Source of the DNA: an uncultured bacterium
Lineage (GTDB): Bacteria > Fidelibacterota > UBA2242
NCBI GenBank assembly: GCA_964441235.1
Contig: CAYTUQ010000002.1
Span: 1,705-65,704 of the forward strand
Length of the DNA: 64,000 bases
Direction of reading: 5' to 3'
Position 1 is the stretch's first letter. Every line of letters starts with the position of its first letter. Shown here in pieces: positions 4,757 through 62,588 of this stretch. The notes beneath the pieces were generated by a model. That model was given only the letters and a program-made list of their open reading frames with translations, did no database searches and was not told where the DNA came from. Made by a program: the position numbers and the translations under genes.

Positions 4757-5303
4757 TGAATTACTCCTTTAGTTATATAGTTATTCAGTTAAATCAAACG
4801 GCTGTTTATTTTAAGTGAATATTTTCTAAAAGTCAACATTATTTTCTATTTTATTTTCCGACAGTAAATAGCTTTTCACAATTATGTGTTAAATTAGAGT
4901 CAAGTTTATTAAAAATATTGGATATCAAAAATAATAAGTCCTCAAAAAAAATTCAAGTCGATGTTACTTCTATAAAAATATTTGATGGGATTGGCGGAGA
5001 CTCAGCTAAGGACTGATTTAATTAGAAATAATTAACGATTTATATTGCCATATTAATCTGAAAATACTACTTTGAACCGAAATCTTGATTTTTGATTTTG
5101 TGTGAAATAAAACCCAATTTCTGAGTTATTTATGATAGCGGGCATTTTTAACCTGAATAATTCGTGAATAAATGAATTTATAAGTTATTGGAGTTAAATT
5201 TCAAACAGTAAAAATAGGGAGGACTTAAAAGATTTATTTTCCTATCTTGGTATAAGTGCGAAAAATCCATAAGTTTTACTAGAACAGTGAGTAAAAGATT
5301 TAG

Positions 5304-6239
5304 ATGTACATAATTTATTTTTTAGCTGGATTAGTTTTACTCTACTATGGTGCTAATTTTCTTGTAAATGGCAGTTCCGCTATTGCAGTATCCCTCGGAG
5401 TTAAAAAAATTGTAGTTGGTCTAACACTTGTTGCTCTTGGTACATCAATGCCTGAGTTTGTTGTAAGTTTATTTGGTGCTGTTGAAAAGGTAGACGATGT
5501 AAGCGTTGGAAATATTGTTGGTAGCAATCTGGCAAATATTCTATTAGTTCTTGGAATCTCATCTTTTATTCATCCAATAAAAGCGAAGAGGAGGATATTT
5601 TTTCTTGACTTTCCAGTTCTCTTAATAATAACTGCTATTTTTATAATTTTTTGTTATGATGGGCGTTTAGTTTTTTACGAAGGTACCATTCTTCTAACCT
5701 TATTTGTCGCTTATATGTCATATATCATCGTTAATCGTAAAGTACAGGAAGAAAATGTTGTCGAAGTAAAAAATATTGAAAAGGGGCATATTTCAAAGAA
5801 TATAGCTTTATCTATTTTGGGATTAGGAGCATTGATAATGGGTGGGAATCTAACAGTTAGAGGAGCTATTGGATTGGCACGTGCTTTTGGTATTTCAGAA
5901 CTTATAATTGGTCTTACTATAGTTGCGCTTGGTACTTCTTTACCAGAACTCTTTACAAGTGTAATAGCAGTTATTAAAAGGGAAGATGAAATCTCTATAG
6001 GCAATATTATTGGGAGTAATCTTTTTAATACGGCATTTGTGTTAGGAATTATACCAATGGTCTATTCACTTAAAATAGATAAAAGCATAATCAGGATCGA
6101 GAATCCCTTTATGATGATTATTACTCTCATATTATTAATTTTTTTATTTATTGGGAAGAAATTGTCAAGAATTGAAGGAGTTTTTTTATTAATACTATAT
6201 GCCCTATTTATACTGAATCTGGGATATAGAATAATTTAG
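5304..6239 (+). CDS. Na+/Ca2+ exchanger family (CaCA, YrbG-like) membrane protein
   Basis: Two alpha-repeat signatures, GTSMPEFVVSL and GTSLPELFTSV. Ten predicted TM helices. Confidence 0.8.
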   Translation: MYIIYFLAGLVLLYYGANFLVNGSSAIAVSLGVKKIVVGLTLVALGTSMPEFVVSLFGAVEKVDDVSVGNIVGSNLANILLVLGISSFIHPIKAKRRIFFLDFPVLLIITAIFIIFCYDGRLVFYEGTILLTLFVAYMSYIIVNRKVQEENVVEVKNIEKGHISKNIALSILGLGALIMGGNLTVRGAIGLARAFGISELIIGLTIVALGTSLPELFTSVIAVIKREDEISIGNIIGSNLFNTAFVLGIIPMVYSLKIDKSIIRIENPFMMIITLILLIFLFIGKKLSRIEGVFLLILYALFILNLGYRII

Positions 6240-6517
6240 GGGGTGTGATAAAATAACCTTTAGGGGGTGTGTCGATCCTTAGGATTCCTTCGGAAAGACA
6301 TCCCTCTGGGAAGAAGAAATAAAATGGATTTTTGTATTATTCTAAGTTCAATCGCCAGACGGATCTCCGAAAAAATATTATGAATATAATTCTGTAAATG
6401 GTAATTAGTTTTTTCTCACCCCCTGAACATTTTTAGTATTGTAAATTCATCCCGAAGTTTCGGGACACAATGATAGTTAACCATGAATGACAACTTTATT
6501 CTATCACACCCCCTTAG
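6237..6517. mobile_element. MITE-like element with TAGGGGGTGTGATA terminal inverted repeats (~281 bp)
   Basis: The 14-15 nt motif is at 6237-6250, with a degenerate second copy at 6261-6275. Its reverse complement is at 6502-6517. A second, shorter 70-bp element with the same TIRs is at 43252-43321. Confidence 0.45.
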
Positions 6518-6537: not shown

Positions 6538-8898
6538 ATGCCCGTAAAAATTATTACCGATGAGTCTTCAAGTTTAGATGAGGTAGATATTAAAAAATAT
6601 GGAATATCAATAATTCCATTCCTGATTAGCGATGCAGCTGGTAAGGAAGTGATAATTAAAGGTGAGCCAAATACGTATAATTCACAAGAGAATCAGACTA
6701 ATATCAGGAATTTTTCCTCGTTAAATGATTATTGTAGCTTTTTGGGTGGAATAAGAAACAAAGATGAGGCTCCAGTATCTGCAGCTCCAGATATTCATTG
6801 GTGTAAGAAATTTCTCGAAGATATTGTTCAGAAGGATGAAGGGGATATATGTTGCATTTTGCTGGCTAAGAATTTAAGCAAAATATATGATAATATTGAG
6901 ATTGCTTCTAAAGACATCAGTAAAAAGTATAATAGAAGAATAGAAGTAGTTGACTCAAATCAGGCATTTTGTCCTGAAGGACTGCTTGTGGTTGAAGCAG
7001 CAAAGATTGCAAAGCAGGGAAAAAGTCTTGATGAAATTATTGGCCATATTGATGATACAAAACATAAGATATTTTTCATCGCTTCTCTTGACAACTTAGA
7101 ATATTTGAGGAGATCTGGAAGGGTTCCTCTGCATAAAAGTATACTTACTAAGATAGCAGACCTTTTGGGAGTTGTTACAATTATTAGTTTTGCAGATAGT
7201 GTTCCACGTCCGATTTGCACTGTCAGAAAAGCTGATGTCAAAAAAAGGATGCTTCAAGAAATACGCGGAAGAATTGGGGATATGGAAACAATTGAACTTG
7301 TACTTGACTATTCAACCGAAAAACAGAGACTTTTTTTAGAGGAACTTAGTGAGACAGTTAAAAAAGAGTTCAATGTAGAAAAGATTTCATATAGACAGGC
7401 AAATAGGATTGTTGCTACTCATACTGGACCTCATATTTATAGTGCATCAATCCTCAGACTCGGTTATAACTCAATTAATACCTCCCTATTAATTAGAATG
7501 TTCAAGGAATCGGAAAAAAAATTAAGAAGATATCGGGGAATTATAGATAGTATAAATATTTTTCCTGTTAATGATTCAGATACTGGTAAAAATATATTGA
7601 GACCAATTGCTGGCGTAACTACAGGCTTAAGTGAAAAGGATATTGTAGTAAGAACGATCGATAAGATTTCAGGGAAAGCGTTTATGAAGGGGGGCGGTTG
7701 TTCTGGTAATGCACTATCCCAATATCTTTTAGGAATTAGTGATTATGTCAAATCTCATCTTTCTAAAGATAAGGATTTGGATCCTGAGACTTTTGTTTGT
7801 GCATTAAGAAAGGGAACCGAAAGCGTTTATGCTTCATTCAGCGACCCAAAAGAGGGAACGATACTTTCAGTGATGAAAGTGTTTGGCAAACAAGCTGAGG
7901 AAGCCCTTAAGAGAAAATATGAGTTTTCATATATTATTAAGAAGGCTTATTCTGCTAGTGTAAAAGAGCTATTAAATCCGATTGTGCAGGGAGTTAAAAT
8001 TCTGAGAGATAGTGATATTTCGGATTCTGGTGGCCTTGGCTTCATAATTTTTCTTCAGGGCTGGTTAGACACTCTAGGAATTTCTATGGACCCGAAAATC
8101 CAGAAACTCAATAGAAATCTGGAGAGGGAGATTAAAGACCAGATAGCCAGTCTAAAATATAAAGCAAAATATCCCGGTTTTTGTGTAGAATGTAATATTA
8201 AGGGCACTGTGGAGAGAGAAGAAATAAGCGACAGATTAAAGTCTCTTCCAAATAAAATTGACTATAATGCTTTGATAATAAGATACGGCGGCGGGTGCAC
8301 TTATATTCACATTCATGTATCTGATAGGGATTTAGTGGATAAAGTCAGACATATATGCAAGAGTTATGGTTACGAAGTCGAAGCAAAAACCCCGACCAGT
8401 TTATCTCAAAAAAAGATCGATATTTATAAACATAAGATTTTAAAATCATTGAAAAAATTAAAAGAAGTACCTTTCCTTTTTATGTACTGGTTTACACCTT
8501 TACCAAGGATATTCTTTGTAAGAAGCGAAATTAGAAAAAAGAAGAAGTATAAAGATATTTCAGAAGAAAGGGATTATCTCAAGCTTGTCTCAAGAGCTCT
8601 GGAGATAAAAACTGACGAAATGAGGACAATGATTCTAGTCTGTAATAAAAAAGGTGAAGTAATATATCTGAATAAGTTGGCAAGAGAATTTTACAACGTT
8701 GAAGATGGATATATAAAAGAGAAATTGAGCAAATTTTTATCTGAGGAAACATTTATATCTGCTGAGGAAAAGATAATTACAGGCTTGAGAGAGGAACATA
8801 TAATTAAAAACGATAATTCTACTTTATTGCTTAAACCAATACGAGTGAAAAGAAAAAATCTTGGAATAATGCTTGAAATAAAAGTAGAGGGAAATTAG
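6538..8898 (+). CDS. DegV-domain + DAK2(DhaL)-domain fusion protein (fatty-acid-kinase-like) with extra C-terminal region
   Basis: N-terminus MPVKIITDESSSL... resembles DegV (fatty-acid binding). The middle region 'EGTILSVMKVF...ILRDSDISDSGGLGFIIFLQG' resembles a Dak2/DhaL domain. The RBS GGAG precedes ATG 6538. The ORF-track start at 6487 lies inside the repeat element. Confidence 0.5.
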   Translation: MPVKIITDESSSLDEVDIKKYGISIIPFLISDAAGKEVIIKGEPNTYNSQENQTNIRNFSSLNDYCSFLGGIRNKDEAPVSAAPDIHWCKKFLEDIVQKDEGDICCILLAKNLSKIYDNIEIASKDISKKYNRRIEVVDSNQAFCPEGLLVVEAAKIAKQGKSLDEIIGHIDDTKHKIFFIASLDNLEYLRRSGRVPLHKSILTKIADLLGVVTIISFADSVPRPICTVRKADVKKRMLQEIRGRIGDMETIELVLDYSTEKQRLFLEELSETVKKEFNVEKISYRQANRIVATHTGPHIYSASILRLGYNSINTSLLIRMFKESEKKLRRYRGIIDSINIFPVNDSDTGKNILRPIAGVTTGLSEKDIVVRTIDKISGKAFMKGGGCSGNALSQYLLGISDYVKSHLSKDKDLDPETFVCALRKGTESVYASFSDPKEGTILSVMKVFGKQAEEALKRKYEFSYIIKKAYSASVKELLNPIVQGVKILRDSDISDSGGLGFIIFLQGWLDTLGISMDPKIQKLNRNLEREIKDQIASLKYKAKYPGFCVECNIKGTVEREEISDRLKSLPNKIDYNALIIRYGGGCTYIHIHVSDRDLVDKVRHICKSYGYEVEAKTPTSLSQKKIDIYKHKILKSLKKLKEVPFLFMYWFTPLPRIFFVRSEIRKKKKYKDISEERDYLKLVSRALEIKTDEMRTMILVCNKKGEVIYLNKLAREFYNVEDGYIKEKLSKFLSEETFISAEEKIITGLREEHIIKNDNSTLLLKPIRVKRKNLGIMLEIKVEGN

Positions 8899-10915: not shown

Positions 10916-11520
10916 AGTATCCCGGCATATTCTCAATATCACCCTAAACAGTATTGAATATTGAATAATGAACAGGGAATAATGAATTTTGAAGTTTTTT
11001 AAAATTAAAAGTTGTATTCTGAATGATTTGCTCTTCTTTATTCGACGTTCGTTGTTCGATATTCATCATTCAAAAGCACATTTATAAAAATTTGTGCCAC
11101 TTCGACTTCGCTCGGAGACCCGTCTGTCGTCAGGGCATTCTTTGTGCCTCGTATACTAAAAGTGGTCTTATTCATGGGTAGAAGAGATTTTAAAAATCTG
11201 TATCTTATTCTCTTTGATTATTACTTCTTATTTAAGAACAAGTTGAAAATCCCAAGTTGTCGGGGGATCAACGATTTTAAATTTTAGATGTTATCCATTC
11301 TCCCTCCTGCTCACTTACTCACTTGACTTTTAGTATAGTATCTCGTGGCTAATAACATCTCAAATATATATTGTTAAAATCGTAAATTTTAAGTAATATT
11401 CAGAGCATTGAAAATTGATTTTCATCTCATGATAAAAACTATCAGAAGGGTTTGGATGAATTAAATTATTTAATCAGCCAATACTCTGAATAGATAAAAA
11501 GATTTTATTGGAAGACTGTT

Positions 11521-16426: not shown

Positions 16427-16478
16427 CTTAGCAAATGCAATAATCCCTGGAGGATTCTTTACATGATGAATCGGGATC

Positions 16479-16543
16479 GTCTCTAAGAGACCTCTGTCCC
16501 AAAGGGATCTCTTCGAGACGAGGCAATGACAGCTAATTCAGAC
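16479..16543. repeat. 65-bp GC-rich hairpin repeat (copy A)
   Basis: Near-identical (1 mismatch) inverted copy at 26747-26812. Contains the near-palindromes gtctctaagagac and tctcttcgagac. Confidence 0.6.
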
Positions 16544-16738
16544 TTTTTATCTCATGGAGATCCCATTGGGACGAATTCATCAATTTTGTTTCAAAAACAT
16601 AATTTGCAATTTAGACTATTCCATATACTATGTTCAAAAAAAGAAGTATTAACAATCATTATTAGTGAATCTTTTGCAAAATTAATATAGTCTAAAATTT
16701 ACCTTTCGAAAGTACCCTCTTTTACTCTCGACTTTCGC

Positions 16739-22773: not shown

Positions 22774-23038
22774 TCAGTCATCCGCAAGGCTATCCTATAA
22801 TCTTCTTGACTTCCAGGATTGAAAGATATATATTAAACCGTTACTTTAAAACGTGATTAAAAATAGGGAAACATGTGAAAATCATGTGCAGCCCCGCTAC
22901 TGTAACCGGAGCGTTTTCTGCATTATGTCACGATCCAAATAAATAGGGATTGGAAGGCGCAGAGAGCTGGATGCCGGAAGCCAGGACACCTGTTTGAAAT
23001 TACTTTAATCCAAAATGCGCGGGCATTAGAGGGTTGAA

Positions 23039-25195
23039 TTGTTTAAAAAATTATTAAAATCTTCACACTACTACTTTTTCAAATCCACTCTTAAATTTTT
23101 CATAGGCAACTACTGCATTCATCATATTGAATATCCCTTGAGGAATACCTTAATTTTAGCATTAGTCGTATATCCCCTGCTTACACTTAATGCTGGAAAC
23201 CAGTGGAAAGGTATGGTTGTCGATTCTTGCAACAATTCCGTTTCCTATGTTTTTATTAATAATTCAACAAAAAATTTATGGACAATTACCGACGAAAACG
23301 GTGAATTCACACTTCCATTTTCCTTTGAAGAAAACGATTCAGTAAGATTTTCCCGCATTGGTTTCAAAACAAAAACAATCAGATTATCAGAAAAGAATAA
23401 CTTACTTTACATAATACTTACAACAAATCCAGTTTTGCTAAAAGAGATAAAAGTATCTGCTAAAAAAGACCAAATAGACATCAGGAACCACAAAATGGCT
23501 GAGATATTCAAATCACCTGAATTAGGAGATATTGAGCACCGACAATTACTTGCTGTCATTCCCGGACTTTCAATCCGATCCTACGGAGGACCAGCTGGAA
23601 TTACTACATTAAGTCTTGATGGAGGACCTTCTTCACAAACCAAAGTTATGGTTTCTGGATTTGATCTGACCAATGCCCAAAATGGTGAAATGGACCTGTC
23701 CCAACTTCCCGGTCCTTTTGTGGAGAACGTAAGTTATATACCCCAGGATGAAAATTTTTACGGCTCGGGTAGCAATGAAAGTACTATACATCTAAACCCC
23801 TGGTCTGGGAAAACCGGATTGTCACTAAGCACTGGAAGTTATGAACATAGTTCTATCCATGGCACTTTAAACCTCAACAAAAACCAGTGGTTTGGAAACT
23901 TTTTGATAGGGAAACGACATGATGATGGCAATTATCCTTTCAAATGGAGAAATGAAAGTTTCAAGCGTGAGAACAACTACTTTGACCAAAAATTCATATC
24001 AGCCCGGTTTAACACAGTTATTCAGAAACGCGCATTTCTTCGTTTTCTCTACTTATTGTCTAATCAGAACAGAGGTATAGCCGGACAGTCGTGGAATCCG
24101 AGCAAAAATGCTAGTAGAGATGATAAACTACAAATAATTGGTGTAAAATTCGGATGGACTAACAAAAAGGGACATGGTTATATCCAAACTATGTATAGAT
24201 ATTCATATGAGCAATACAAAAATCCAATGATTGCAGTAAATAGTTTTCATAGGCTAAGCACATGGCAGGTAATACTGAATCAAGAGAAAAAAATTAACGA
24301 AAAAATTGGGGTAAATTTGCTTTTTGAAACTAAAAAAGATGGGCTTAAAAGCAAAGATACACATAATCATTCTAGAATTAGTTATAGCACTGCAATTACA
24401 ATTCCTTATCATATTTCAAAAACGTTTAAATTTCAACCTGCTTACTGTTACGACATTTCGCCGAATCTATATCATGAAAGCACTTATGAACTGAAATTGC
24501 TGACGTCATTCAATTTTCTTTTTATCAAATCATTAACTATTCATCAAGGCAGATATTTTCGCTATCCTACCTTTAATGATCTCTATTGGATTCCTGGTGG
24601 GAACCCGAATTTGAAGCCGGAACATACCGACAATATAAGTCTTGATATCAAATGTCATTTAATCCAGGATTCCGATCTTGAAATTTTATTATTTTATAAA
24701 TCCAGTGATGATTTAATTCAATGGACACCAATTAGTTCTTATTGGCAGCCTAAAAATATTCAGCATGCAGTCAGGAATGGATATAAAATAATTTATCGCT
24801 GGAATAGTCCAAATTTACCATTAAAAGCTTTTGCTCATTATAGCAGCAATAGAACCAAAGACTTATCTCCAGGTGATTGCTATGGAAAACCGCTTCGATA
24901 TGCACCGGAACAAACCGCTGCAGTAGGTATAAACTGTGAGCCCGAACCGCTATCCTTTCATCTTCAAATACATCATACAAGCGAAAGAATATCTATGTAT
25001 TCCTGGCCAGAAGATGTGATATTATCGGAAGTAGTACTCATATTTACCAGCTGTGCATATACATGGAAAAGACCTTCTGGAGATATAATTATTGTTTTTG
25101 CCATGGATAACCTGGCAAATAAAAGATATGAAACAATCAAGGGTTATCCAGAACCAGGTAGAACATTTAGAATGACAATAAGCTATCAACATTAA
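23039..25195 (+). CDS. TonB-dependent receptor-like outer-membrane protein (CarboxypepD_reg + plug)
   Basis: CarboxypepD_reg-like segment (NGEFTLPF...VRFSRIGFKTKTI) then a plug motif (IPGLSIRSYGG...) and a beta-rich C-terminus. The exact start is uncertain (TTG at 23039). Confidence 0.5.
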   Translation: MFKKLLKSSHYYFFKSTLKFFIGNYCIHHIEYPLRNTLILALVVYPLLTLNAGNQWKGMVVDSCNNSVSYVFINNSTKNLWTITDENGEFTLPFSFEENDSVRFSRIGFKTKTIRLSEKNNLLYIILTTNPVLLKEIKVSAKKDQIDIRNHKMAEIFKSPELGDIEHRQLLAVIPGLSIRSYGGPAGITTLSLDGGPSSQTKVMVSGFDLTNAQNGEMDLSQLPGPFVENVSYIPQDENFYGSGSNESTIHLNPWSGKTGLSLSTGSYEHSSIHGTLNLNKNQWFGNFLIGKRHDDGNYPFKWRNESFKRENNYFDQKFISARFNTVIQKRAFLRFLYLLSNQNRGIAGQSWNPSKNASRDDKLQIIGVKFGWTNKKGHGYIQTMYRYSYEQYKNPMIAVNSFHRLSTWQVILNQEKKINEKIGVNLLFETKKDGLKSKDTHNHSRISYSTAITIPYHISKTFKFQPAYCYDISPNLYHESTYELKLLTSFNFLFIKSLTIHQGRYFRYPTFNDLYWIPGGNPNLKPEHTDNISLDIKCHLIQDSDLEILLFYKSSDDLIQWTPISSYWQPKNIQHAVRNGYKIIYRWNSPNLPLKAFAHYSSNRTKDLSPGDCYGKPLRYAPEQTAAVGINCEPEPLSFHLQIHHTSERISMYSWPEDVILSEVVLIFTSCAYTWKRPSGDIIIVFAMDNLANKRYETIKGYPEPGRTFRMTISYQH

Positions 25196-26530: not shown

Positions 26531-26746
26531 GCCGTCCCGTTTCAATATTTAAAATTGAAACTTATAAGGATATTAAAATTTCCCACAGAGGTTCCAATTG
26601 AGAATTTAGCAATACCACAATCATTTTTAAAAAGAAGCCCGGCAATTGTTTGTCAGACTTCTTCAGTATATTATCATAAACCTACAAATTTATTTTTTTA
26701 TTAATTTGGATAAAATTGTCCCAACGGGATTTCCATGAGATAAAAA

Positions 26747-26812
26747 GTCTGAATTAGCTCTCATTGCCTCGTCTCGAAGAGATCCCTTTGGGACAGAGGT
26801 CTCTTAGAGACG
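26747..26812. repeat. 65-bp GC-rich hairpin repeat (copy B, inverted relative to copy A)
   Basis: Reverse complement of 16479-16543 with one mismatch. Further related GC-rich fragments lie at 26925-26965. Confidence 0.6.
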
Positions 26813-27090
26813 TTCCTGATTTATCAGAAGGAGCAATCTCCCGGGTCATAAGTACTTGTTTTTAATAGATTGCTCCGCCTGCCTGTCCTGCGGACACAGA
26901 CAGGGATACGCACAGGTAGACGTAGACAGGTCTCTCTGCTCCTCGTCTCGTGGAGAATCCTAAAGAACAAAGCAAAAATTCTGGTTACTAAAAACATGTA
27001 TTAAATCTTTCGAAATGTCAAAAGTGTCTCTGAATTTTAACAATTAAATTTGTATATTATATTTGTGAATAACATAAAGGAAAGTTATAA

Positions 27091-32020: not shown

Positions 32021-32602
32021 ATGAAAAATATAAAGGCTATAGAAATCTTACAAAATTCAGGGAAGAAGATTTTCACCCTTTCTGAAATAAAGAATATTTT
32101 AGGCATTGAGAAAGATAATACAATCTACAAAAAAGTAGAATCTTTGATAAAAGATCGGATATTAAAAAGGGCAATTAAAGGAATCTATTATTTTACTTAT
32201 AATTCACCGTCAGATTTTGAATTAGCTAATCATCTTTATCAACCGTCTTATGTCTCTCTTACTTCGGCGTTAAATTTCCATGGAATTTTAGTCCAGGTGC
32301 CATATAAAATAACTTCTGTTACTCCTAAATTAACACGGGAAATTTATATTAACGAAAAGACCTTTAAATATTCTCATATCTCAAAAGATTATTTTTGGGG
32401 ATATCAAAAAGTAGAAGGATTTCTAATTGCAGAACCAGAAAAAGCATTTTTGGATGTTCTGTTCTTTATGAGCTTGGGGAGGATTATTATAAGTTACGAT
32501 GAACTTTTGTTAGATAGGATTGATTATGAAAAATTTTCAGAAATGACCAAAAAAATTAAAAACCCTAACTTTCACAGATTTTTAAAAAAATTAAAATTAT
32601 GA
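32021..32602 (+). CDS. AbiEi-type antitoxin/transcriptional regulator (type IV TA / abortive infection)
   Basis: N-terminal wHTH (KNILGIEKDNTIYKKVESLIKDRILKRAIKGIYYF). Its stop overlaps the start of the downstream AbiEii gene (ATGA). Confidence 0.55.
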   Translation: MKNIKAIEILQNSGKKIFTLSEIKNILGIEKDNTIYKKVESLIKDRILKRAIKGIYYFTYNSPSDFELANHLYQPSYVSLTSALNFHGILVQVPYKITSVTPKLTREIYINEKTFKYSHISKDYFWGYQKVEGFLIAEPEKAFLDVLFFMSLGRIIISYDELLLDRIDYEKFSEMTKKIKNPNFHRFLKKLKL

Positions 32603-33399
32603 TTACACCTGAACAGATTCAAGATTTATCAAAAAAAAAGAGGATAAATCAAGATACTATACTGCGAGAATATCTTCAACTTTTATTTTTGCAGAATCTT
32701 TATAGCGAAAAGTTGTCACAGAAAATTTATTTTAGAGGCGGAACAGCAATTCATTTGCTTTTAGGTTCTTCACGATTTTCAATGGATTTGGATTTTACTT
32801 CAGAAATTTCTACAACTTGTCTGGAAAAATTAATAAAAAAGATTGTTGATAGAATGAATTTGGAAATTCCAGATATCAGATTAAAATCATCAAGAAAAAG
32901 AATCAATCACTCATTTTCTAAGATTCTATCCTATTATCCAAAAGAGAAGAAATACCCTGTTAATATTGCAATTGATTTCTCTTTAAGAGAAAAACCTGTG
33001 AAAAAAACTCAAATAACAGTATTGAAAACTGATTTTCCAATAAGTGGTTTACCTGTAATTTCACATCTACATTGGCAGGAAATCTTAGCAGAAAAAATCA
33101 GGGCAATCTTGATTCGTGGAAAAGGAAGAGATTTATATGATATTTATTATTTGGTTATGAAAAATATCCGCCAGCTGGCAGATTGGGATGTGGTGAAAGA
33201 AAAAATGAAGATATATCCAGAAGTTGATATTGATACAAATATGAATACTCTTATTAGTAGAATTGAAAAATTGGGAAACAAAGAGCTTAAAAATGATTTA
33301 GCCCAGTTTTTACCTGATTCTGAAAGAAATTCTCTTTTGCCAATATTGAAAGACGAGTTAATTAAAGAACTTGAAAAATATAAACAAACACGAGGATGA
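32599..33399 (+). CDS. AbiEii/AbiGii nucleotidyltransferase toxin (DUF1814)
   Basis: YFRGGTAIHLLLGSSRFSMDLDF matches the GGTAL...R.S.DLDF nucleotidyltransferase signature. Confidence 0.7.
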   Translation: MITPEQIQDLSKKKRINQDTILREYLQLLFLQNLYSEKLSQKIYFRGGTAIHLLLGSSRFSMDLDFTSEISTTCLEKLIKKIVDRMNLEIPDIRLKSSRKRINHSFSKILSYYPKEKKYPVNIAIDFSLREKPVKKTQITVLKTDFPISGLPVISHLHWQEILAEKIRAILIRGKGRDLYDIYYLVMKNIRQLADWDVVKEKMKIYPEVDIDTNMNTLISRIEKLGNKELKNDLAQFLPDSERNSLLPILKDELIKELEKYKQTRG

Positions 33400-33490: not shown

Positions 33491-34216
33491 ATGGATGAAA
33501 AGAGTTGGATAAAAAATAGACCGGAGTATGAAAGACCTCGTGAAAAACTTTTGAAGTTTGGTTCTAAGAATCTTTCTAATTCGGAATTACTTGCTATCTT
33601 TCTTAGAATAGGTGTTAAAGACAAAAGTGCAATTCAACTTGCAGCAGAAATATTAGAAAAATTTGGTGGGATTAGAGGAATTTGTACTGCCAAAATAGAA
33701 GATTTACTTACAATAAAAGGATTGGGTATAGCAAAGATTGCTCAATTAAAAGCAACTTTAGAACTCGCTGAAAGGTATCTTAAAGAAGATGTTAAGCAAA
33801 AATCAATTGTAGAAAGCTCAAAGGAAGTTTTAAATTATCTTCATCATTCAATGCAAGATTTAGATCATGAATTAATGAAAGTAATCCTTTTGAATGGTCA
33901 AAATCAAATAATAAATATTGTAGATTTATTTAGAGGCTCTATAAGTTCATCAAGTGTTTATCCAAGGGAGATAATCAAATTGGCTCTTAAATATTCAGCT
34001 TTAGCAATTGTTATTGTTCATAATCATCCTTCTGGAATTTCAAAACCAAGCGAAGGTGATAAAAAACTTACAAAAGAAATTATTTTTGCATGTATTTCTA
34101 CAGGTATTAAAGTTCACGACCATATAATAATTGGCAATAAAAAGCATTATAGTTTTGCTGATGAGGGAATTATTGAAGTTTACGAAAAAGAATATGAAAA
34201 GAGGATGAAACTATGA
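33491..34216 (+). CDS. radC: RadC-like JAB/MPN domain protein
   Basis: N-terminal HhH (LLTIKGLGIAKIAQLKATLELAERY) and a JAMM motif (HNHPSG...S..D). Confidence 0.8.
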   Translation: MDEKSWIKNRPEYERPREKLLKFGSKNLSNSELLAIFLRIGVKDKSAIQLAAEILEKFGGIRGICTAKIEDLLTIKGLGIAKIAQLKATLELAERYLKEDVKQKSIVESSKEVLNYLHHSMQDLDHELMKVILLNGQNQIINIVDLFRGSISSSSVYPREIIKLALKYSALAIVIVHNHPSGISKPSEGDKKLTKEIIFACISTGIKVHDHIIIGNKKHYSFADEGIIEVYEKEYEKRMKL

Positions 34217-36096
34217 GTCCAGTAAAATATCAAAGAGTGGATGAAATAGAAAAAAGGGGATATTTAAGAGATTATGCAACGGGAAAATGGGTTAGGTCAA
34301 GGCCCGAAGAAGGACCAAGACAAATATTTGAAAAAAGGTTAGTTGGAGAATATGGCTACGACAAAGGTCAAATTGAAATTGAGTTCTTAATACAAAAAGG
34401 AGCTAGAAAAATCGGTCCTGCTGATATAGTTGTTTTTCACGATTCAAAAAGAAAAACATTTGATAACATAAAAATAGTGGTTGAAACAAAGAGAAAAGAA
34501 AAAAATGATGGAAAAGATCAATTAAGATCTTATTCAATATCACCATCCCAAGAATTTGCAGTTTGGTTTAACGGAAAAGACATTCTATTTCTACAGGTTC
34601 TGAAAAAAGCACCATGGTTTAGAGAAATCCCAGATATTCCTAAAAAAGGTGAGACATTAGAAGATGTAGGGCTTTATTATAAGAAGGATTTAAAACCTGC
34701 AACAGAACTGAAAACTGTTTTTGAGATTTGTCACAATTATATTTATGCAAATGAGGGACTCTTGAAAGAGAAGGTATTTAATGAGGTGCTAAAACTAATT
34801 TTTATCAAAATGGCTGATGAAAAGAAATCAAATCCCAAATGTGAGTTTAGAATTACTGACAAAGAATTAAAAGAATTAGAAGAGGGCAAAGAAAATGCAT
34901 TTGTGAATAGGATTTTGAATCTTTTTAGTGAAGTAAAAACAAGATATAGTGATGTTTTTGAGAAAAATGAAAGAATATATCTAAGACCTTTAACAATTGC
35001 CTTTATTGTCAGTCAATTCCAAAAATATAGTTTGATTAACACTAAAGCAGATGTTAAAGGAACAGCATTTCAAACATTTGTTTATGCTCATCAAAGAGGA
35101 GAGAGAGGGGAGTTCTTTACACCACATCCAATTGTTGAATTAGCAGTAAATATGCTAAATCCAAAAGACAATGAAAGATTTATTGACCCTGCTTGTGGTT
35201 CTGGCGGTTTCCTTGTTAAAGGAATGAATTATATTAAAGAAAAATTTATTAAAGATAATCCTCATAGGATAACTGAAGCAGATAAATTTATAGGTGAATA
35301 TGCACATTCTTATGTTTCTGGAATTGATATTAATCCTGATTTGGCAAAAGTTGCAAAGATGCACATGATTTTGTATGATGATGGACACACGGGAATTTTT
35401 TCAGCGAATACTTTAGAGAGTTTTGATAATTTGGTAAAAACTGCACAAGAAATGGGAGTTCCAAGAGCAATACAACCAAGACCAAATACTTTTCAAGTTT
35501 TGATGACCAATCCACCTTTTGGGACAAAGGGAAAAGTAACGAATAAAAGAATCTTGGAAAACTTTGAACTTGGCCATAAATGGAAAAACGATAAAGAAAT
35601 AGGAGGATGGATAAAAACAAATAAAATCTTGGATGGGCAAGTTCCAGATATTTTATTCATTGAGAGATGTTTGCGGTTATTGGACAATCATGGTAGAATG
35701 GCAATTGTTTTGCCTGACGGTGATTTAACAAATCAAAATACAGAGCATATAAGAGAATTTATTAAACAAAAAGCAAGATTACTGGCAGTAGTTTCTATGC
35801 CTATTGGAACATTTATGCATGCTGGAGTTAATCCAAAAGCAAGTGTATTGTTTTTACAAAAATTGGATGAAGAAAAATTAGAAGAGTTGAATAGAAAAGA
35901 TTATCCCATCTTCATGGCCATTGCTGAGAGGATAGGCTATGATTTAACAAGTAAAACACCTAAAATACTTTACAAAAGAGATGAGAAGGGAGAGATAATT
36001 AAATATAAAGAAGGAAAACCAATTATTGAATCTGATATTCCAGAAATAATAGAAGCGTTTAACGGATTCAAAAGGAAATATAACTTGAGGTTTTAA
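34213..36096 (+). CDS. hsdM: Type I-like N6-adenine DNA methyltransferase (HsdM) with N-terminal HsdR_N-like domain
   Basis: Motif I DPACGSGGFL and motif IV NPPFG. The N-terminal ~130 aa (ARKIGPADIVVFHD...IKIVVETKRKEK...QLRSYS...FAVWFNGKDI) match the HsdR_N PD-(D/E)xK-like fold. Confidence 0.75.
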   Translation: MSPVKYQRVDEIEKRGYLRDYATGKWVRSRPEEGPRQIFEKRLVGEYGYDKGQIEIEFLIQKGARKIGPADIVVFHDSKRKTFDNIKIVVETKRKEKNDGKDQLRSYSISPSQEFAVWFNGKDILFLQVLKKAPWFREIPDIPKKGETLEDVGLYYKKDLKPATELKTVFEICHNYIYANEGLLKEKVFNEVLKLIFIKMADEKKSNPKCEFRITDKELKELEEGKENAFVNRILNLFSEVKTRYSDVFEKNERIYLRPLTIAFIVSQFQKYSLINTKADVKGTAFQTFVYAHQRGERGEFFTPHPIVELAVNMLNPKDNERFIDPACGSGGFLVKGMNYIKEKFIKDNPHRITEADKFIGEYAHSYVSGIDINPDLAKVAKMHMILYDDGHTGIFSANTLESFDNLVKTAQEMGVPRAIQPRPNTFQVLMTNPPFGTKGKVTNKRILENFELGHKWKNDKEIGGWIKTNKILDGQVPDILFIERCLRLLDNHGRMAIVLPDGDLTNQNTEHIREFIKQKARLLAVVSMPIGTFMHAGVNPKASVLFLQKLDEEKLEELNRKDYPIFMAIAERIGYDLTSKTPKILYKRDEKGEIIKYKEGKPIIESDIPEIIEAFNGFKRKYNLRF

Positions 36097-37034
36097 TGAT
36101 GGAAAAAGAAAAAATGACTTTTGAGGATTTTTGGAATCATGAAACAGAATATTTTAAAGAAACGGCAAAAGAAAGTTTTAAAAAAAATAAACAGGGAGTT
36201 GAATATTTTATAGAATATCTCGATAATTATATAGATCTATTTGGCATAAACAAGTATTACCAAAAAGATGAAATAACAAATTCTATTTCTGCTATGTTTC
36301 TCTTTTACTCCTTTAAACAATTGCGATGGGTTAATCATGAGATTCTATCAGGTGCTTATTTTGAGGCAATCAGAGATTTAAGATTTGCATTTGAAACTAT
36401 TGTTTGGGCACATTTTTTAGATGAGTGGATTAACGAAAAAACAAAAGAATACCTAAAAGTAAGTATAGGAGCAGGAATATCTTTAAAATATGAGATTTTA
36501 AAGTTAAGAGATGAGATATATGATGTCAAAGGTTATAGAAAAAAGAAAAATGAAAGAGAGAAAATAGTTAAGGAAAATGTTGGCAAATTCATAAAAAAGC
36601 ATGCCCAAGATTTTACAAACGAAGAAACGTGGAAATATAAAGAACTTTATTTTGAAATCTTGAAGAACTTGGGAGTTGGATTTACTGGAAAAAATGGATT
36701 AATTGCTAAACTTCCCTTAGAAGAGGAAGATGAAAAGAAGTTGGACAAACTTTATTCAGAATTATCAAAATATATCCATCCATCAAACAGAATAATAAAA
36801 CCGTTTTATGAAGACGATATTGGTTTAATCTTTAATTTTTGCTATAATAAAATATTATTTAATAGCTGTATGAGGTTTCTTGTAGATGTTATGGACTTAT
36901 TTTATGCCATTCTTTACGTCCATTTTGAGAAACTTAGAGAAGTGATTAAAGAAAAAATTGTAGATTTTTGTAAGGTTAATTTTAATATGGAATTTCCGAT
37001 AACTGAAAAATTAATACGGGATGACCTAGTATGA
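36096..37034 (+). CDS. hypothetical protein embedded between hsdM and hsdS
   Basis: 312 aa with no recognisable motif. Start overlaps the hsdM stop and stop overlaps the hsdS start, so it is operonic. Confidence 0.3.
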   Translation: MMEKEKMTFEDFWNHETEYFKETAKESFKKNKQGVEYFIEYLDNYIDLFGINKYYQKDEITNSISAMFLFYSFKQLRWVNHEILSGAYFEAIRDLRFAFETIVWAHFLDEWINEKTKEYLKVSIGAGISLKYEILKLRDEIYDVKGYRKKKNEREKIVKENVGKFIKKHAQDFTNEETWKYKELYFEILKNLGVGFTGKNGLIAKLPLEEEDEKKLDKLYSELSKYIHPSNRIIKPFYEDDIGLIFNFCYNKILFNSCMRFLVDVMDLFYAILYVHFEKLREVIKEKIVDFCKVNFNMEFPITEKLIRDDLV

Positions 37035-39439
37035 TAATTTCAGAAGCAAAATTTTCAGAAGCTTATACCAAACTAAGATTTGATGCTGAATATTTTAAAA
37101 CAGAATTCATTGAAACACGATATAGATTAGAAAAAATTAATGCATCCAAACTTACTTCTATTGCTGAAATATCAAAATTAAGGAGGGATCCTACAAAAGA
37201 ATCGGATAAAGAATTTATATACATTGATATAAGCAATATTGATACATCTGTTGCTGATGTCAGTACACAGAAAATAATAGGTTATAAAGCACCAACAAGA
37301 GCGAGAAAATTAGTTCAAACAGGAGATGTTATAGTATCTACTGTACGACCGAATAGAAATGCCGTCGCAATTATACCAAAAGAATTAGATAATAGCGTTT
37401 GTTCTACAGGCTTTTGTGTTTTAAAACCGACGGAAGTAAATTTGCATTATTTGTTTGTTTTCTTAAAAACAAAATATGCAATAAATCAACTAGTAAGAGA
37501 AACTATGGCTTCTATGTATCCCGCAGTTAGTGAAGATCAAATTAAAAAGATATTGGTGTTTTTACCATCTTTTGAATTCCAGTTTCACGTAGAAAAACTC
37601 GTCAAAGAAGCATTTTCAAAACGAAAACTTGCTGATGAAAAATACAAACAAGCAAAACAACTTTTAGAAAAAGAATTAGGACTTGATAAATTAAAATTAA
37701 AAGAAGAAAAAACATTTGAAGCAAAATCATCAGAACTATTTGGAAGTAGAAGATTTGATTCTGAGTACTACAAGCCGAAGTGCAAACAAATCATAAGGTT
37801 TCTTAAAAATTCTGGGTTTGAAGTAAAGAAATTAAAAGAGATTGTAAAAATTTCAAATAAGAAAATTGACCCAACAAAGGAGCCAACCAAAAGGTTTAGA
37901 TATGTTCCAATAGCAAAGATAAATTCAAATGGAGAAATTGATGAGTGGGATGAATTTAATGGTTGGCAGGCACCAAGCAGGGCAAGAATGCTTATTAAAA
38001 AAGGGGATGTTTTAGTCTCATCATTAGGTGGTTCGCTTAACAAAATAGCATTAGTTCCTGAAGAATTAAATAATTCAATTGCTACAACAGGAACCTTTGT
38101 CATCAATTCTGAAAACTTTTATAGTGAATTCTTATTTTTATTATTCAGAACAGAACTAATCAAATTGCAGTTGGAGCGGAAAACAGCAGGTGCAATAATG
38201 ACTGCTGTTCCTAAAACAACTTTTGGAAATTTACTAATTCCAATTATTCCAAAACAAAAGCAAGAAAATATTGCAAAATTAATAAACCAATCTTTTACTT
38301 TGAGAAAAGAAGCAAAACAACTTTTAGAAGAGGCAAAAGAAAAGGTGGAAAGTATGATAGAAAATCCTTTAGAAATCTCTGAAACCCAACCCGTTCTCCG
38401 TAGTCCTGATAAAATTGGGACGAAGGGTGAACCTGAGATTATTATCCCTTTTCCTATTCCTTCAAAATTAATAAGCCTTAAACCGCCTGTCAAAGTAAAA
38501 TATAAAGATTACCAAATGCTTGATGGTTCAATAAAGAAATTGGTTCAACAAATAGGAGATGGTTCAATCATTAAAAGATTTGAAAAAACACCAATACCTA
38601 AAAGTAAAATAGATGTAGTTTGTCCTCATTTTCTTGAATTAAAATGGGCAACAGGATGTCCTTATGATTGTTCCTGGTGCTATCTGAAAGGAACTTTTAG
38701 ATTCTTGCCGTATAAAGCGAAACCACATATTAAGGATTTTGATAAGATAGAAAAACATACAAAGACATTTTTGGAATATGTTCAAACTCCTGAAGTATTA
38801 AATACAGGTGAGCTGGCAGACTCACTAATGCTTGAAGTAAAGAATAAATCATTTGTTAAGTTTATTGTTCCACTTTTTGAAAACCAAAATAAGCATAAGA
38901 TTCTCTTTTTGAGTAAATCAAACAAAATAGAAAATCTTTTATTACTTAATACACATCGTCAGGTTATAGTAAGTTTTAGTCTTAATGCTATTCCTGTGGC
39001 ACAAAGATGGGAAAAGAAAGCACCTTCAGTTGAAGACCGCATAAAAGCAGCAGGGATTCTATACAAACAACGATTTGAAGTAAGGATAAGGATAGACCCA
39101 ATGATCCCTGTGGAAAACTGGGAGCAACTTTATACTGATTTAATAGACCGCATATTTAATTCGTTTATACCTGAAAGAATTACTTTAGGTTCTCTTAGAG
39201 GATTACAGAGTACTATCAATGGAACATCAGATAAGTCCTGGGTAAAATATCTATCTGAACGCTCAAACTGGGGAAGAAAAATAGATATTAATTTAAGGCT
39301 TGCTATGTACAAAACAATTATCTCTTATTTAAATGAAAAGTATAAATATAATAAGGTCGCTCTTTGCAAAGAAACTTTGGCAATTTGGGATATACTAAAT
39401 ACGAATTATAAAAATATAAAATGTAATTGTGTGTGGTAG
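37031..39439 (+). CDS. hsdS: Type I specificity subunit (two TRDs) fused to a C-terminal SPL/COG1533-like radical SAM domain
   Basis: Residues 1-~450 carry two HsdS target-recognition domains (RFDAEYF...STGFCVLKP..., RFDSEYYKP...TTGTFVI...) with conserved coiled-coil spacers. Residues ~500-802 carry CPYDCSWCY (CxxxCxxC) followed by spore-photoproduct-lyase-family landmarks (LFLSKS, SFSLNA, IRIDPMIP). It is a single continuous ORF. Confidence 0.6.
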   Translation: MIISEAKFSEAYTKLRFDAEYFKTEFIETRYRLEKINASKLTSIAEISKLRRDPTKESDKEFIYIDISNIDTSVADVSTQKIIGYKAPTRARKLVQTGDVIVSTVRPNRNAVAIIPKELDNSVCSTGFCVLKPTEVNLHYLFVFLKTKYAINQLVRETMASMYPAVSEDQIKKILVFLPSFEFQFHVEKLVKEAFSKRKLADEKYKQAKQLLEKELGLDKLKLKEEKTFEAKSSELFGSRRFDSEYYKPKCKQIIRFLKNSGFEVKKLKEIVKISNKKIDPTKEPTKRFRYVPIAKINSNGEIDEWDEFNGWQAPSRARMLIKKGDVLVSSLGGSLNKIALVPEELNNSIATTGTFVINSENFYSEFLFLLFRTELIKLQLERKTAGAIMTAVPKTTFGNLLIPIIPKQKQENIAKLINQSFTLRKEAKQLLEEAKEKVESMIENPLEISETQPVLRSPDKIGTKGEPEIIIPFPIPSKLISLKPPVKVKYKDYQMLDGSIKKLVQQIGDGSIIKRFEKTPIPKSKIDVVCPHFLELKWATGCPYDCSWCYLKGTFRFLPYKAKPHIKDFDKIEKHTKTFLEYVQTPEVLNTGELADSLMLEVKNKSFVKFIVPLFENQNKHKILFLSKSNKIENLLLLNTHRQVIVSFSLNAIPVAQRWEKKAPSVEDRIKAAGILYKQRFEVRIRIDPMIPVENWEQLYTDLIDRIFNSFIPERITLGSLRGLQSTINGTSDKSWVKYLSERSNWGRKIDINLRLAMYKTIISYLNEKYKYNKVALCKETLAIWDILNTNYKNIKCNCVW

Positions 39440-42013: not shown

Positions 42014-43051
42014 ATGTTTAAACCCAAATTTACATACACAAATAAAATTGTAAGGTTGCTTACCAGAATATCTGCAGCGAGAGAGATAATTCTTAATTCG
42101 CCTTTGATCCCGGGGTGGAATGTTACATTAAGGCAGGAAGCAATAATCCACAGTGCTCATTCGTCCACGCGTATTGAGGGAAATAGATTATCATTGGAAC
42201 AAGTAAGCGAATTATCTCTTGGAAGAGAAGTAATGGCGACTCGAAGAGATAAACAGGAAGTTTTGAACTATCTGAATGTGCTAAAAAATATTGATAAGCT
42301 GATAAAAGGAAATTCTATAAGTGAGAAAGATATCTTAAATATTCACCGTATGGTAACAGAAGACACATTAGACAATTCTAATGATTGTGGGGTTTATCGT
42401 AACCGTTATGTTGTGGTTGGAAATAGATTTACAGGGGAGATTTTCTTTAAGCCACCGCAAAATGAGGATGTTCCCGGGTTAATAGAAGATTTGATTGAAT
42501 GGATAAACTCTGAGGAATCAAAATCACTCGAGCCTGTTATTGAAGCGGGTATTGAGCATTATGAATTTGTCAGAATTCATCCTTTTGTTGATGGTAATGG
42601 GAGAACTGCAAGAGTTCTGGCAACTTTGATTCTCTACATGCGAGATTTCGACACAAAACAATTTTTTTGCCTTGATGATTATTACGATTCTGATAGACAA
42701 GCATACTATTTAGCATTACAAAGTGTTAAACAAGACACATTAGACCTGACAAACTGGTTGGAATATTTTGTCGAGGGAGTAAGTGTAAGCACTGAGGCTG
42801 TCAAAGAAAGAGTGATAAGGTTAAGTAGTGAGAGACTGAGAAGATCAAAAGGCGGGCAAATAGCTTTAACCGAAAGACAGATAAGAATTGTGGAATTTAT
42901 TAATAAAAATGGTAAAATAACTAATAGAGATGTACGGGGAATGTTTAAACTTTCGGATGAAGGTGCATTGAGAGAGATTAAAAAACTAATGGTGTTGAAA
43001 GTTATTCAAAGCCAGGGTAAAGGGAGAGGGTTGCATTATGTCCTTAAATAA
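42014..43051 (+). CDS. fic: Fic/DOC family protein with Fic_N and C-terminal wHTH
   Basis: HPFVDGNGRTARV is the Fic motif HPFx[DE]GNGR. N-terminal ...HSSTRIEGN... is a Fic_N motif. Confidence 0.8.
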   Translation: MFKPKFTYTNKIVRLLTRISAAREIILNSPLIPGWNVTLRQEAIIHSAHSSTRIEGNRLSLEQVSELSLGREVMATRRDKQEVLNYLNVLKNIDKLIKGNSISEKDILNIHRMVTEDTLDNSNDCGVYRNRYVVVGNRFTGEIFFKPPQNEDVPGLIEDLIEWINSEESKSLEPVIEAGIEHYEFVRIHPFVDGNGRTARVLATLILYMRDFDTKQFFCLDDYYDSDRQAYYLALQSVKQDTLDLTNWLEYFVEGVSVSTEAVKERVIRLSSERLRRSKGGQIALTERQIRIVEFINKNGKITNRDVRGMFKLSDEGALREIKKLMVLKVIQSQGKGRGLHYVLK

Positions 43052-43123
43052 GGTTGGCGATTAGGTTGGCGATTAGGTTGGCGATTAGGTTGATGATTAG
43101 GTTGATGATTAGGTTGATGATTT
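43052..43123. repeat. 12-bp tandem repeat (GGTTGGCGATTA x3, GGTTGATGATTA x3)
   Basis: Six perfect or near-perfect head-to-tail units, starting one base after the fic stop codon. Confidence 0.85.
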
Positions 43124-43251
43124 GACAATTTTATTTTGTCTAAATTTACCCTACAACGTCATTTGTCGCAGACATCTCTTTGAGATAGCAAATCAGGCAA
43201 ATGCCTGATATAGTTCGTACCATCAACTGTAAATACTACATCCGGTATATT

Positions 43252-43321
43252 TAAGGGGGTGTGATAGAATGAAGTTTTCACTCAGTCAACTTACTAAAGG
43301 TTATATTATCACACCCCCTAA
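43252..43321. mobile_element. 70-bp MITE-like element with TAAGGGGGTGTGATA TIRs
   Basis: taagggggtgtgata ... tatcacaccccctaa. Same TIR as the 6237-6517 element. Confidence 0.45.
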
Positions 43322-43360
43322 ATTTTTATATTACGTAGTAGGGTTAATAGTGGTGTAATA

Positions 43361-62351: not shown

Positions 62352-62588
62352 TAAAACGCAGAGGCGCAGAGAACGCAGGGAGAAAAAGAAATATTGTAAA
62401 TAGATAAGATGTCGAAAATAGTATCATTAATTAGACGCTAAGGAAAGTTGAAAGATTATGAACATATATTTTAAACAGAGATTGTGAAATGAATAGGAAA
62501 ATTAACATAACTAATCATAAAAATTCTGCGTCTAAAGAATATTATATATCATTTAAATCTCTGCGTTCTCTGCGCCTCTGCGTTTATA
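62352..62588. repeat. ~240-bp element bounded by a perfect 25-nt inverted repeat (AAACGCAGAGGCGCAGAGAACGCAG)
   Basis: 62356-62380 equals the reverse complement of 62561-62585. The core is AT-rich. It lies immediately upstream of the brxC-like gene. Confidence 0.7.

Follow-up and report, generated by a model that had tools for sequence, protein, structure and literature searches.

Miniature inverted-repeat elements with TTA or TAA target duplications in Candidatus Marinimicrobia (Fidelibacterota)

Two inverted-repeat sites and their surroundings

The stretch of DNA analyzed here, referred to throughout as the window, comprises 64,000 nucleotides of contig CAYTUQ010000002.1 (assembly GCA_964441235.1, positions 1,705 to 65,704 of the forward strand) from an uncultured bacterium of the Fidelibacterota. 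The motif TAGGGGGTGTGATA and its reverse complement form two pairs in this window. One pair, at 6237-6250 (+) and 6502-6515 (−), lies between a gene for a CaCA protein and a gene for a DegV-Dak2 protein; the other, at 43253-43266 (+) and 43307-43320 (−), lies at the right edge of a defence island. An earlier reading of the sequence, the original prediction, had placed the motif at these four positions and taken both sites for MITEs, transposable elements of miniature size that end in inverted repeats. The motif was present at all four, and the MITE reading of both sites is supported by copy number, target-site duplication (TSD) and empty sites. Both sites are very probably copies of one family of non-autonomous DNA transposons, named F1 here, that is moved in trans.

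With up to two mismatches allowed, TAGGGGGTGTGATA has five matches in the window compared with 0.24 expected from shuffles, and none of 100 shuffles reached five. One F1 element proper occupies 6239-6513 (275 bp), the other 43255-43318 (64 bp); both run from GGGGG to CCCCC and are bounded by GGGGGTGTGATA…TATCACACCCCC. The paired repeats of the original prediction stood, but not its bounds of 281 and 70 bp: T(T/A)A on either side is a 3-bp TSD that lies outside the terminal inverted repeat (TIR). Shared TIRs of 14-15 nt had been described as enclosing different interiors. The shared TIRs are real, but the copies also have conserved subterminal sequence in common at both ends, and a window-wide repeat search matched the long and short copies over 38 nt and 33 nt at their two ends.

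Beyond the shared TIRs, F1 is conserved at both ends, and these ends, A and B, are distinct. End A reads GGGGGTGTGATAAWATAACCTTTAG, and end B, as the reverse complement read inward, GGGGGTGTGATAGAATRAAGTT.TCA.TCA. The TIR is perfect over 12 bp (GGGGGTGTGATA) and reaches about 19 bp counting imperfect positions. In the long copy, which reads from end A to end B on the + strand and has collinear copies elsewhere, the TIR of end A occupies 6239-6250 (+), with conserved sequence running on to about 6262 (…AAAATAACCTTTA). The TIR of end B, TATCACACCCCC on the + strand, occupies 6502-6513 (−) and is conserved inward to about 6480. Across copies GGGGGTGTGATA and TATCACACCCCC are nearly invariant, and among 22 aligned copies each of the 12 terminal pairs is retained by 18-22. 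The long and short elements have G+C contents of 36.7% and 37.4% compared with 34.8% for the window, and are classed here as AT-rich. Inside the window elements there is no open reading frame (ORF) of any size, save for a spurious 5' extension of DegV-Dak2.

Filled and empty sites at the CaCA–DegV-Dak2 junction

Empty orthologous sites were found for both window copies. For the long copy they are provided by loci L037/L038 (CaCA 86% identical) and L040/L041 (83%), in which the gap between the CaCA stop codon and the DegV-Dak2 ATG is 20 nt and holds a single TTA. The relatives read …AATTTAATGAAAAA… at this junction while the window reads …AATAATTTA, the 275-bp element and TTAGTGAAAAA…. The TTA that is single in L038 and L040 is present in the window as a left copy at 6236-6238 and a right copy at 6514-6516. 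Blastn homology breaks at window positions 6238 and 6514, and in the empty site of L040 the two matching segments have exactly 3 nt (4933-4935) in common.

Insertion split the 20-nt spacer by 278 bp and left both proteins unaltered. The claim that the long element abuts the CaCA stop codon was borne out: the stop TAG (6237-6239) consists of the TA of the duplicated TTA and the first G of F1. The stop codon in the empty-site relatives is TAA, and the protein has 311 aa with or without the insertion. The claimed overlap with the 5' end of the DegV-Dak2 gene proved to be an artefact of ORF calling. The mechanically called ORF starts at 6487; the gene itself starts at the ATG at 6539 and spans 6539-8898 (+), giving the 786-aa protein that is also found in identical-strain contigs and relatives.

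In L039 (CaCA 89% identical), the same TTA is filled by a different F1 variant of 87 bp, in the opposite orientation and with TTA/TTA flanks (L039 2475-2567 versus window 6236-6516). This is read here as a preferred target that was used independently twice; alternatively, in-situ inversion and replacement may account for it.

Target-site duplication and target preference

Insertion sites were collapsed where orthologous or duplicated, which gave 38 non-redundant F1 sites. Direct TTA/TTA or TAA/TAA flanks, that is, the 3-bp TWA duplication, were present at 31 of these; four sites had inverted TTA…TAA flanks and three were degenerate (direct versus inverted, binomial p = 1.7e-6). The check for TSDs called for by the original prediction was thus positive. 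Read from end A to end B, the trinucleotide can be either TTA or TAA, and it is therefore a duplication and does not belong to the repeat. A TA duplication and a 4-bp duplication were both ruled out for F1, since TAA-flanked copies have AA beside the element and the blastn overlap at the empty site is exactly 3 nt.

The target is preceded by T (position −1) at 29 of 31 sites and followed by a purine (position +1) at 28 of 31, giving the consensus R-T-[TTA]-R; the flanks of F1 are 70% A+T. Insertion of F1 with duplication of its target is observed, and F1 is a mobile element.

Distribution of F1

Genomes were scanned, one per species, with the pattern TWAGGGGGTGTGATARWAT. The same pattern was used for metagenome contigs, and a shorter one for viral contigs. 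The genome scan gave 32 loci. About ten genome bins hold real copies and the rest are single chance matches, those in Firmicutes being AAGGGGGTG…ATG sequences that resemble ribosome-binding sites. Four to six contigs were matched in each bin with F1, and most of these bins are named Neomarinimicrobiota, with one Cloacimonadota and one Deltaproteobacteria. Metagenome contigs contained at least 79 F1 loci; among the loci listed, which did not include the window's own contigs, five lay on one 125-kb contig (Ga0315547_1000069). Pairing of A and B ends yielded at least 65 complete F1 elements of 64-545 bp. These copy counts are lower bounds. In viral contigs there were 99 single chance matches, none with an A or B end, and no plasmid matched the F1 pattern.

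The count of occurrences suggested at the outset therefore showed the motif to recur as paired A and B ends across several Marinimicrobia genomes and metagenome contigs. It is neither restricted to the two window loci nor found beside a functionally coherent set of genes. The neighbors of F1 copies include CaCA and DegV, a TonB-dependent receptor with a GntR-like regulator, RadC, TsaB and an interrupted AAA ATPase, which are unrelated in function. For the CaCA and esterase proteins flanking F1, the nearest named relatives belong to Candidatus Marinimicrobia / Fidelibacterota, and identical flanking genes were found on JGI sediment metagenome contigs and in Logan assemblies. From these sequences the F1 family appears to be specific to Candidatus Marinimicrobia (Fidelibacterota / 'Neomarinimicrobiota').

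F1 copies are mostly intergenic and occur in both orientations, with one copy inside a gene. At L016 5274-5372, a 99-bp F1 relative (TIR GGGGGTGGAATA, TTA/TTA flanks) splits an AAA-ATPase (DUF4143-like) gene into 5' and 3' ORFs. Breaks in Logan contigs fall exactly at …AACCTTTAG, the point at which F1 variants diverge: L003 and L004 end there, and L223 and L224 begin there, as expected of a multicopy repeat in a de Bruijn graph.

Internal structure of F1

The commonest form of F1 is 101-108 bp long, with the consensus GGGGGTGTGATAATATAACCTTAACATnTTTAATATTGTAAATTCATAAATAACATAATGATAAATCACCATGAATGACAACTTTATTCTATCACACCCCC. Variants differ in blocks, GC-rich palindromes such as CCGGCAGCTGCCGG and TCCCGAAGTTTCGGGA standing in place of AT-rich stretches at fixed sites. 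In a subfamily of 206-275 bp, F1-long, an inner segment lies between AACCTTTA and TGAACAT; L035, L008, L042, L058, L064, L072, L082 and L091 hold collinear copies, 206-273 bp in length. The long copy in the window belongs to F1-long, with two further small blocks, one of them an 18-nt unit.

In the window the inner segment is 161 bp long (6263-6423, + strand), has TIR-like ends GGGGGTGTGTCG… …TTCTCACCCCC and is flanked by TTA (6260-6262) and TGA (6424-6426). Its cleanest version is in L035, where the ends are GGGGGTGAGAAgAAA and tttTTCTCACCCCC. A degenerate internal TIR had been noted at about 6261-6275. The sequence there is indeed TIR-like, but it is the left end of this 161-bp segment, whose right end is TTCTCACCCCC. 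All 17 inner segments (17/17) lie at one identical position inside F1. The inner segment probably stems from a related element that inserted into F1 long ago. Against this stands the failure to find a free-standing inner segment outside F1 in the loci examined. Either one old nested insertion may have produced a composite that then spread, or the inner segment may be ancestral.

The 18-nt GC-rich unit of the window copy, CGCCAGACGGATCTCCGA, lies at 6353-6370 (+) and is absent from the otherwise collinear copies in L008, L035 and L005. A palindromic GC-rich module, TCCCGAAGTTTCGGGA, occupies 6450-6465, where other copies are AT-rich. In F1, inner-segment and F2 copies that are otherwise collinear (F2 being a second family, described below), the 18-nt unit (CSCYAGACGGGTCTCCGA) occupies at least five different positions, always directly after T. 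It was seen at L039 2478-2564, L005 5440-5984, L106, L082, L056, L096, L070, L045 and L081, and it has a longer, 37-nt form in L039 and L005. In 875 kb there are 21 copies of the unit compared with about 0.6 expected, by a rough estimate. Its 14-nt core also occurs outside any MITE, at about 11112-11125 (− strand).

Nesting of the short copy in another family, F2

The short element had been described as sitting at the right edge of the defence island. Its position is correct, but the element is not free-standing: it is a 64-bp F1 copy (F1-mini, 43255-43318, − strand, flanked by TAA at 43252-43254 and TAA at 43319-43321) nested in a copy of another MITE family, F2. The F2 copy is 195 bp long including the insert (43149-43343, − strand), has the ends CCCTACAACGTCA… …TTACGTAGTAGGG and is flanked by TTTA (43145-43148) and TTAA (43344-43347). 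Across the family the F2 ends are CCCTACTACGTAA … TGACGTTGTAGGG (CCCTACWACGT ends), the length with insert is 168-212 bp, and the flanks are mostly TTAA/TTAA and once TAAA/TAAA. A relative of 82% identity, L220, is without the F2 composite and reads GTCTAATTCAATAGTGG, versus GTCTAAATTTA, the 195-bp composite and TTAATAGTGG in the window. As judged from these sequences, the presence or absence of F2 fits a 4-bp duplication.

An F2 copy without the F1 insert is found at L053 1800-1926, with the junction …AAAAATTTAATATAC…. The F1-mini copies (64-65 bp) occupy one identical position inside F2 in 18 of 18 cases. Independent insertion of the 64-bp copies was ruled out, since this shared position points to one nesting event. 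That single event is also the reason why most F1-mini copies show TTA…TAA; a perfect TTA/TTA is kept around the F1 insert in L065 and L098. F1-mini would thus have inserted into F2 once, and the composite of 168-212 bp would then have spread as one unit.

The genes of the defence island include AbiEii (32599-33399), RadC (33491-34216), a type I restriction-modification methylase (34213-36096), a protein resembling a specificity subunit (37031-39439) and Fic (42014-43051). The fourth of these is unusual, as its 802 aa fuse Methylase_S (residues 260-429) with a radical SAM domain (539-712) resembling that of spore photoproduct lyase. Just upstream of F2, at 43052-43124, lies a 12-bp tandem repeat of about six units (GGTTGGCGATTA / GGTTGATGATTA). 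A single unit, GGTTGGCGATTTGACA, is present in L220, so the tandem repeat of the window is a recent local expansion.

Proposed mechanism and the search for a transposase

Prokaryotic MITEs have been defined previously as elements of about 50-500 bp, reaching 1000 bp at most, some of which insert into one another (PMC10969869; definition also in PMC4596501). F1 has the structural features of such elements, save that its parent element was not found. It is small (64-545 bp), non-coding, multicopy and AT-rich, has TIRs and a TSD, and is polymorphic for presence and absence. What is new here is two or three MITE families; the kind of element is already known.

In the proposed mechanism, a transposase supplied in trans would bind the two ends of F1. 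Insertion at R-T-TTA-R would proceed via a 3-nt staggered cut, the repair of which would duplicate TTA (or TAA). The long copy landed on a TTA overlapping the CaCA stop codon and split the 20-nt spacer without change to either protein. A DDE transposase of the IS5 family / PIF-Harbinger type would best fit the 3-bp TWA duplication together with the G-rich termini. As no partner was recovered, its family could be assigned only from duplication length, target and termini, and confidence in the IS5/PIF-Harbinger assignment is about evenly matched by doubt.

Several observations weigh against the F1 family being a MITE family mobilized in this way. A search for the cognate transposase, as the original prediction had proposed, was unsuccessful. 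Across about 1 Mb of loci, viral contigs and plasmids no autonomous element with F1 ends was detected, nor any such element encoding a DDE_Tnp_1 or DDE_Tnp_4 transposase, the search for a full-length element being incomplete. The ORFs beside solo ends (L015, L020, L026, L061, L075, L115) are ordinary genes and no transposase was among them. TIR pairs 600-3000 bp apart with TWA flanks numbered two, each of which consisted of separate MITEs with no transposase enclosed. The motif Y..R...E......K had seven matches among 1002 ORFs (about 1 Mb), none of them transposase-like by inspection. The four sites with TTA…TAA flanks are also compatible with a longer palindromic TIR. Lastly, the sole transposase seen in this genome belongs to an insertion sequence (IS) with different ends, which is described below. 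When 121 loci were compared all against all by blastn, internal repeats in the range 0.5-3.5 kb proved to be only orthologous genes and an AAA-ATPase paralogue.

The IS, found on moving outward from the window edges, lies at about 425-2265 of L228, a contig of the same strain, some 7.5 kb upstream of the window start. It encodes a 451-aa DDE_Tnp_1 transposase (764-2119), has the ends TCTGACCGAAAAG / CTTTTCGTCCAGA and is flanked by a 7-bp TATATAG duplication. It is absent from L227 and hence strain-polymorphic, which shows that an active IS exists in this organism. Its different ends and its 7-bp duplication ruled it out as the partner of F1.

Alternative explanations

The best-surviving alternative keeps F1 as a MITE and assigns its movement to a DDE transposase outside IS5/PIF-Harbinger, either of IS30 type or of an undescribed family. 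This is possible, if clearly less probable than the IS5/PIF-Harbinger assignment. The missing partner leaves room for it, and IS30-family elements make 2-3-bp duplications. Against it, a 3-bp TWA duplication marks the ISL2, IS1031 and IS427 groups of the IS5 family, which have G-rich ends. Two further points argue against an enzyme of another kind: PIF/Harbinger, whose canonical elements make 3-bp duplications, has as a hallmark a 3-bp duplication confined to TWA within a short extended target (PMC2213677, PMC12730594), and in the related phylum Bacteroidota MITEs are documented to descend from IS5-family elements (PMC4596501).

Unlikely, by the present assessment, is a pair of further proposals, namely that the 18-nt unit is a mobile unit in itself or the footprint of an unknown insertion/excision process and, separately, that the partner of F1 belongs to a transposase group undescribed in the phylum. 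If true, an 18-nt mobile unit would be far smaller than any described transposable element. The unit may alternatively have arisen as a recombination mosaic.

It is also improbable that the sites originated as a structured non-coding RNA or as a regulatory palindrome (operator, attenuator or intrinsic terminator) with its stem kept by selection. Both window copies fold more stably than shuffles (z −4.2 to −5.6), the ends are strongly conserved across species-level genomes, and the copies seen are mostly intergenic. Any long inverted repeat would show such a low-energy fold. Neither site matched an Rfam family at gathering score, and RNAalifold on 22 aligned copies gave the terminal stem only. 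No compensatory change was found in its 16 pairs (0/16), the covariation term was +0.05, and several one-sided changes break pairs. No T-run terminator was predicted in either element, and promoter-like sites were not above shuffles. The occurrence of F1 in both orientations beside unrelated genes, and its precise presence or absence with a 3-bp duplication, are unlike a regulatory site. As an account of origin, the RNA or regulatory explanation is largely refuted.

Elements mobilized by Y1 transposases insert beside one set tetra- or pentanucleotide and are not known to duplicate their target. REP/BIME-like or IS200/IS605-type palindromic elements, moved single-stranded by a Y1 (HUH) transposase (RAYT, TnpA), would account for the small size, the hairpin-forming ends, the mosaic of GC-rich palindromic modules and the high intergenic copy number, but are very improbable given the 3-bp duplication of TTA or TAA at 31 of 38 sites, ends that are true TIRs of 12-19 bp rather than subterminal hairpins at each end, and the lack of a Y1 gene noticed, without systematic search, among the genes examined.

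Comparison with known elements

As a probable MITE family, F1 resembles Tourist-like MITEs, PIF/Harbinger elements (e.g. mPing) and the IS5 groups ISL2, IS1031 and IS427 in its 3-bp TSD restricted to TTA/TAA and its short extended target. Further traits in common are short TIRs beginning with G, insertion in either orientation and non-coding derivatives of about 60-500 bp. F1 differs from these in residing in an uncultured bacterial phylum, where it is known without its cognate transposase; its TIR, GGGGGTGTGATA, was matched to no described element.

Correia elements have a TA duplication and 26-bp TIRs, and exert promoter and RNase III effects that have been shown. F1, in contrast, has a 3-bp TWA duplication and 12-bp TIRs, and for it an effect on expression is only predicted. 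Likeness to the Correia elements (CREE/NEMIS, Neisseria) is seen in the intergenic location, a length of about 100-150 bp, the TIRs, the length variants of internal segments and the co-transcription with neighboring genes as long hairpins, which for F1 is predicted (PMC10969869). The pneumococcal BOX, RUP and SPRITE repeats are likewise small, interspersed and modular, and insert into one another (PMC10969869). BOX is modular without a classical TIR and TSD, whereas the nested partners F1 and F2 both have a TIR and a TSD; sequences and hosts differ.

Bacterial MITEs with TIRs of 11-12 bp include the IS5-derived BrickBuilt, MITEPgRS and MITE700 of Porphyromonas gingivalis and ATR of Neisseria meningitidis (PMC4596501). 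F1 shares with the MITEs of that study a copy number of 10-20 or more in each genome, interiors that vary and contain internal repeats, frequent nesting in other mobile elements and a parent inferred from the TIRs. Their TIRs (GAGACC…) are identical to, or one base off, those of an IS in the same genomes and their duplications are irregular; in F1 the duplication is regular and the parent IS is missing. In the literature searched, no paper describing MITEs in Marinimicrobia was found.

Consequences for the genomes that carry F1 and F2

F1 and F2 cause predictable breaks in short-read assemblies of this abundant, uncultured phylum of marine and sediment habitats, and F1 inflates ORF calls, as in the false 5' end of DegV-Dak2. 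Both families provide clean presence/absence markers for strain typing. F1 shows, in addition, that a TWA-targeting transposase is, or recently was, present in the lineage. It can interrupt genes and it can split operon spacers: the 20-nt CaCA–DegV-Dak2 junction becomes about 300 nt of hairpin-forming RNA. An inserted F1 would be co-transcribed and could fold as a long hairpin, through which expression might be affected. The understanding of how MITEs work is unchanged by F1 and F2.

Other repeats and features in the window

A third interspersed repeat occurs at 16465-16575 (+) and 26715-26825 (−). The two copies are intergenic and inverted relative to each other, and align with 83% identity over 160 nt, within which about 105 nt form a nearly identical core. 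The repeat contains many short GC hairpins (…CGTCTCTAAGAGACCTCTGTCCCAAAGGGATCTCTTCGAGACG…) and was not found in the other loci examined. At 62354-62585 lies a 232-bp element with 28-nt TIRs that are 96% complementary (AAACGCAGAGGCGCAGAGAACGCAGGGA) and an AT-rich interior. It is the only copy in the data examined and is probably, to judge from its structure, another MITE family. A cobalamin riboswitch (Rfam RF00174, 92 bits) is located at 22832-23011, upstream of a 718-aa ORF at 23039-25195.

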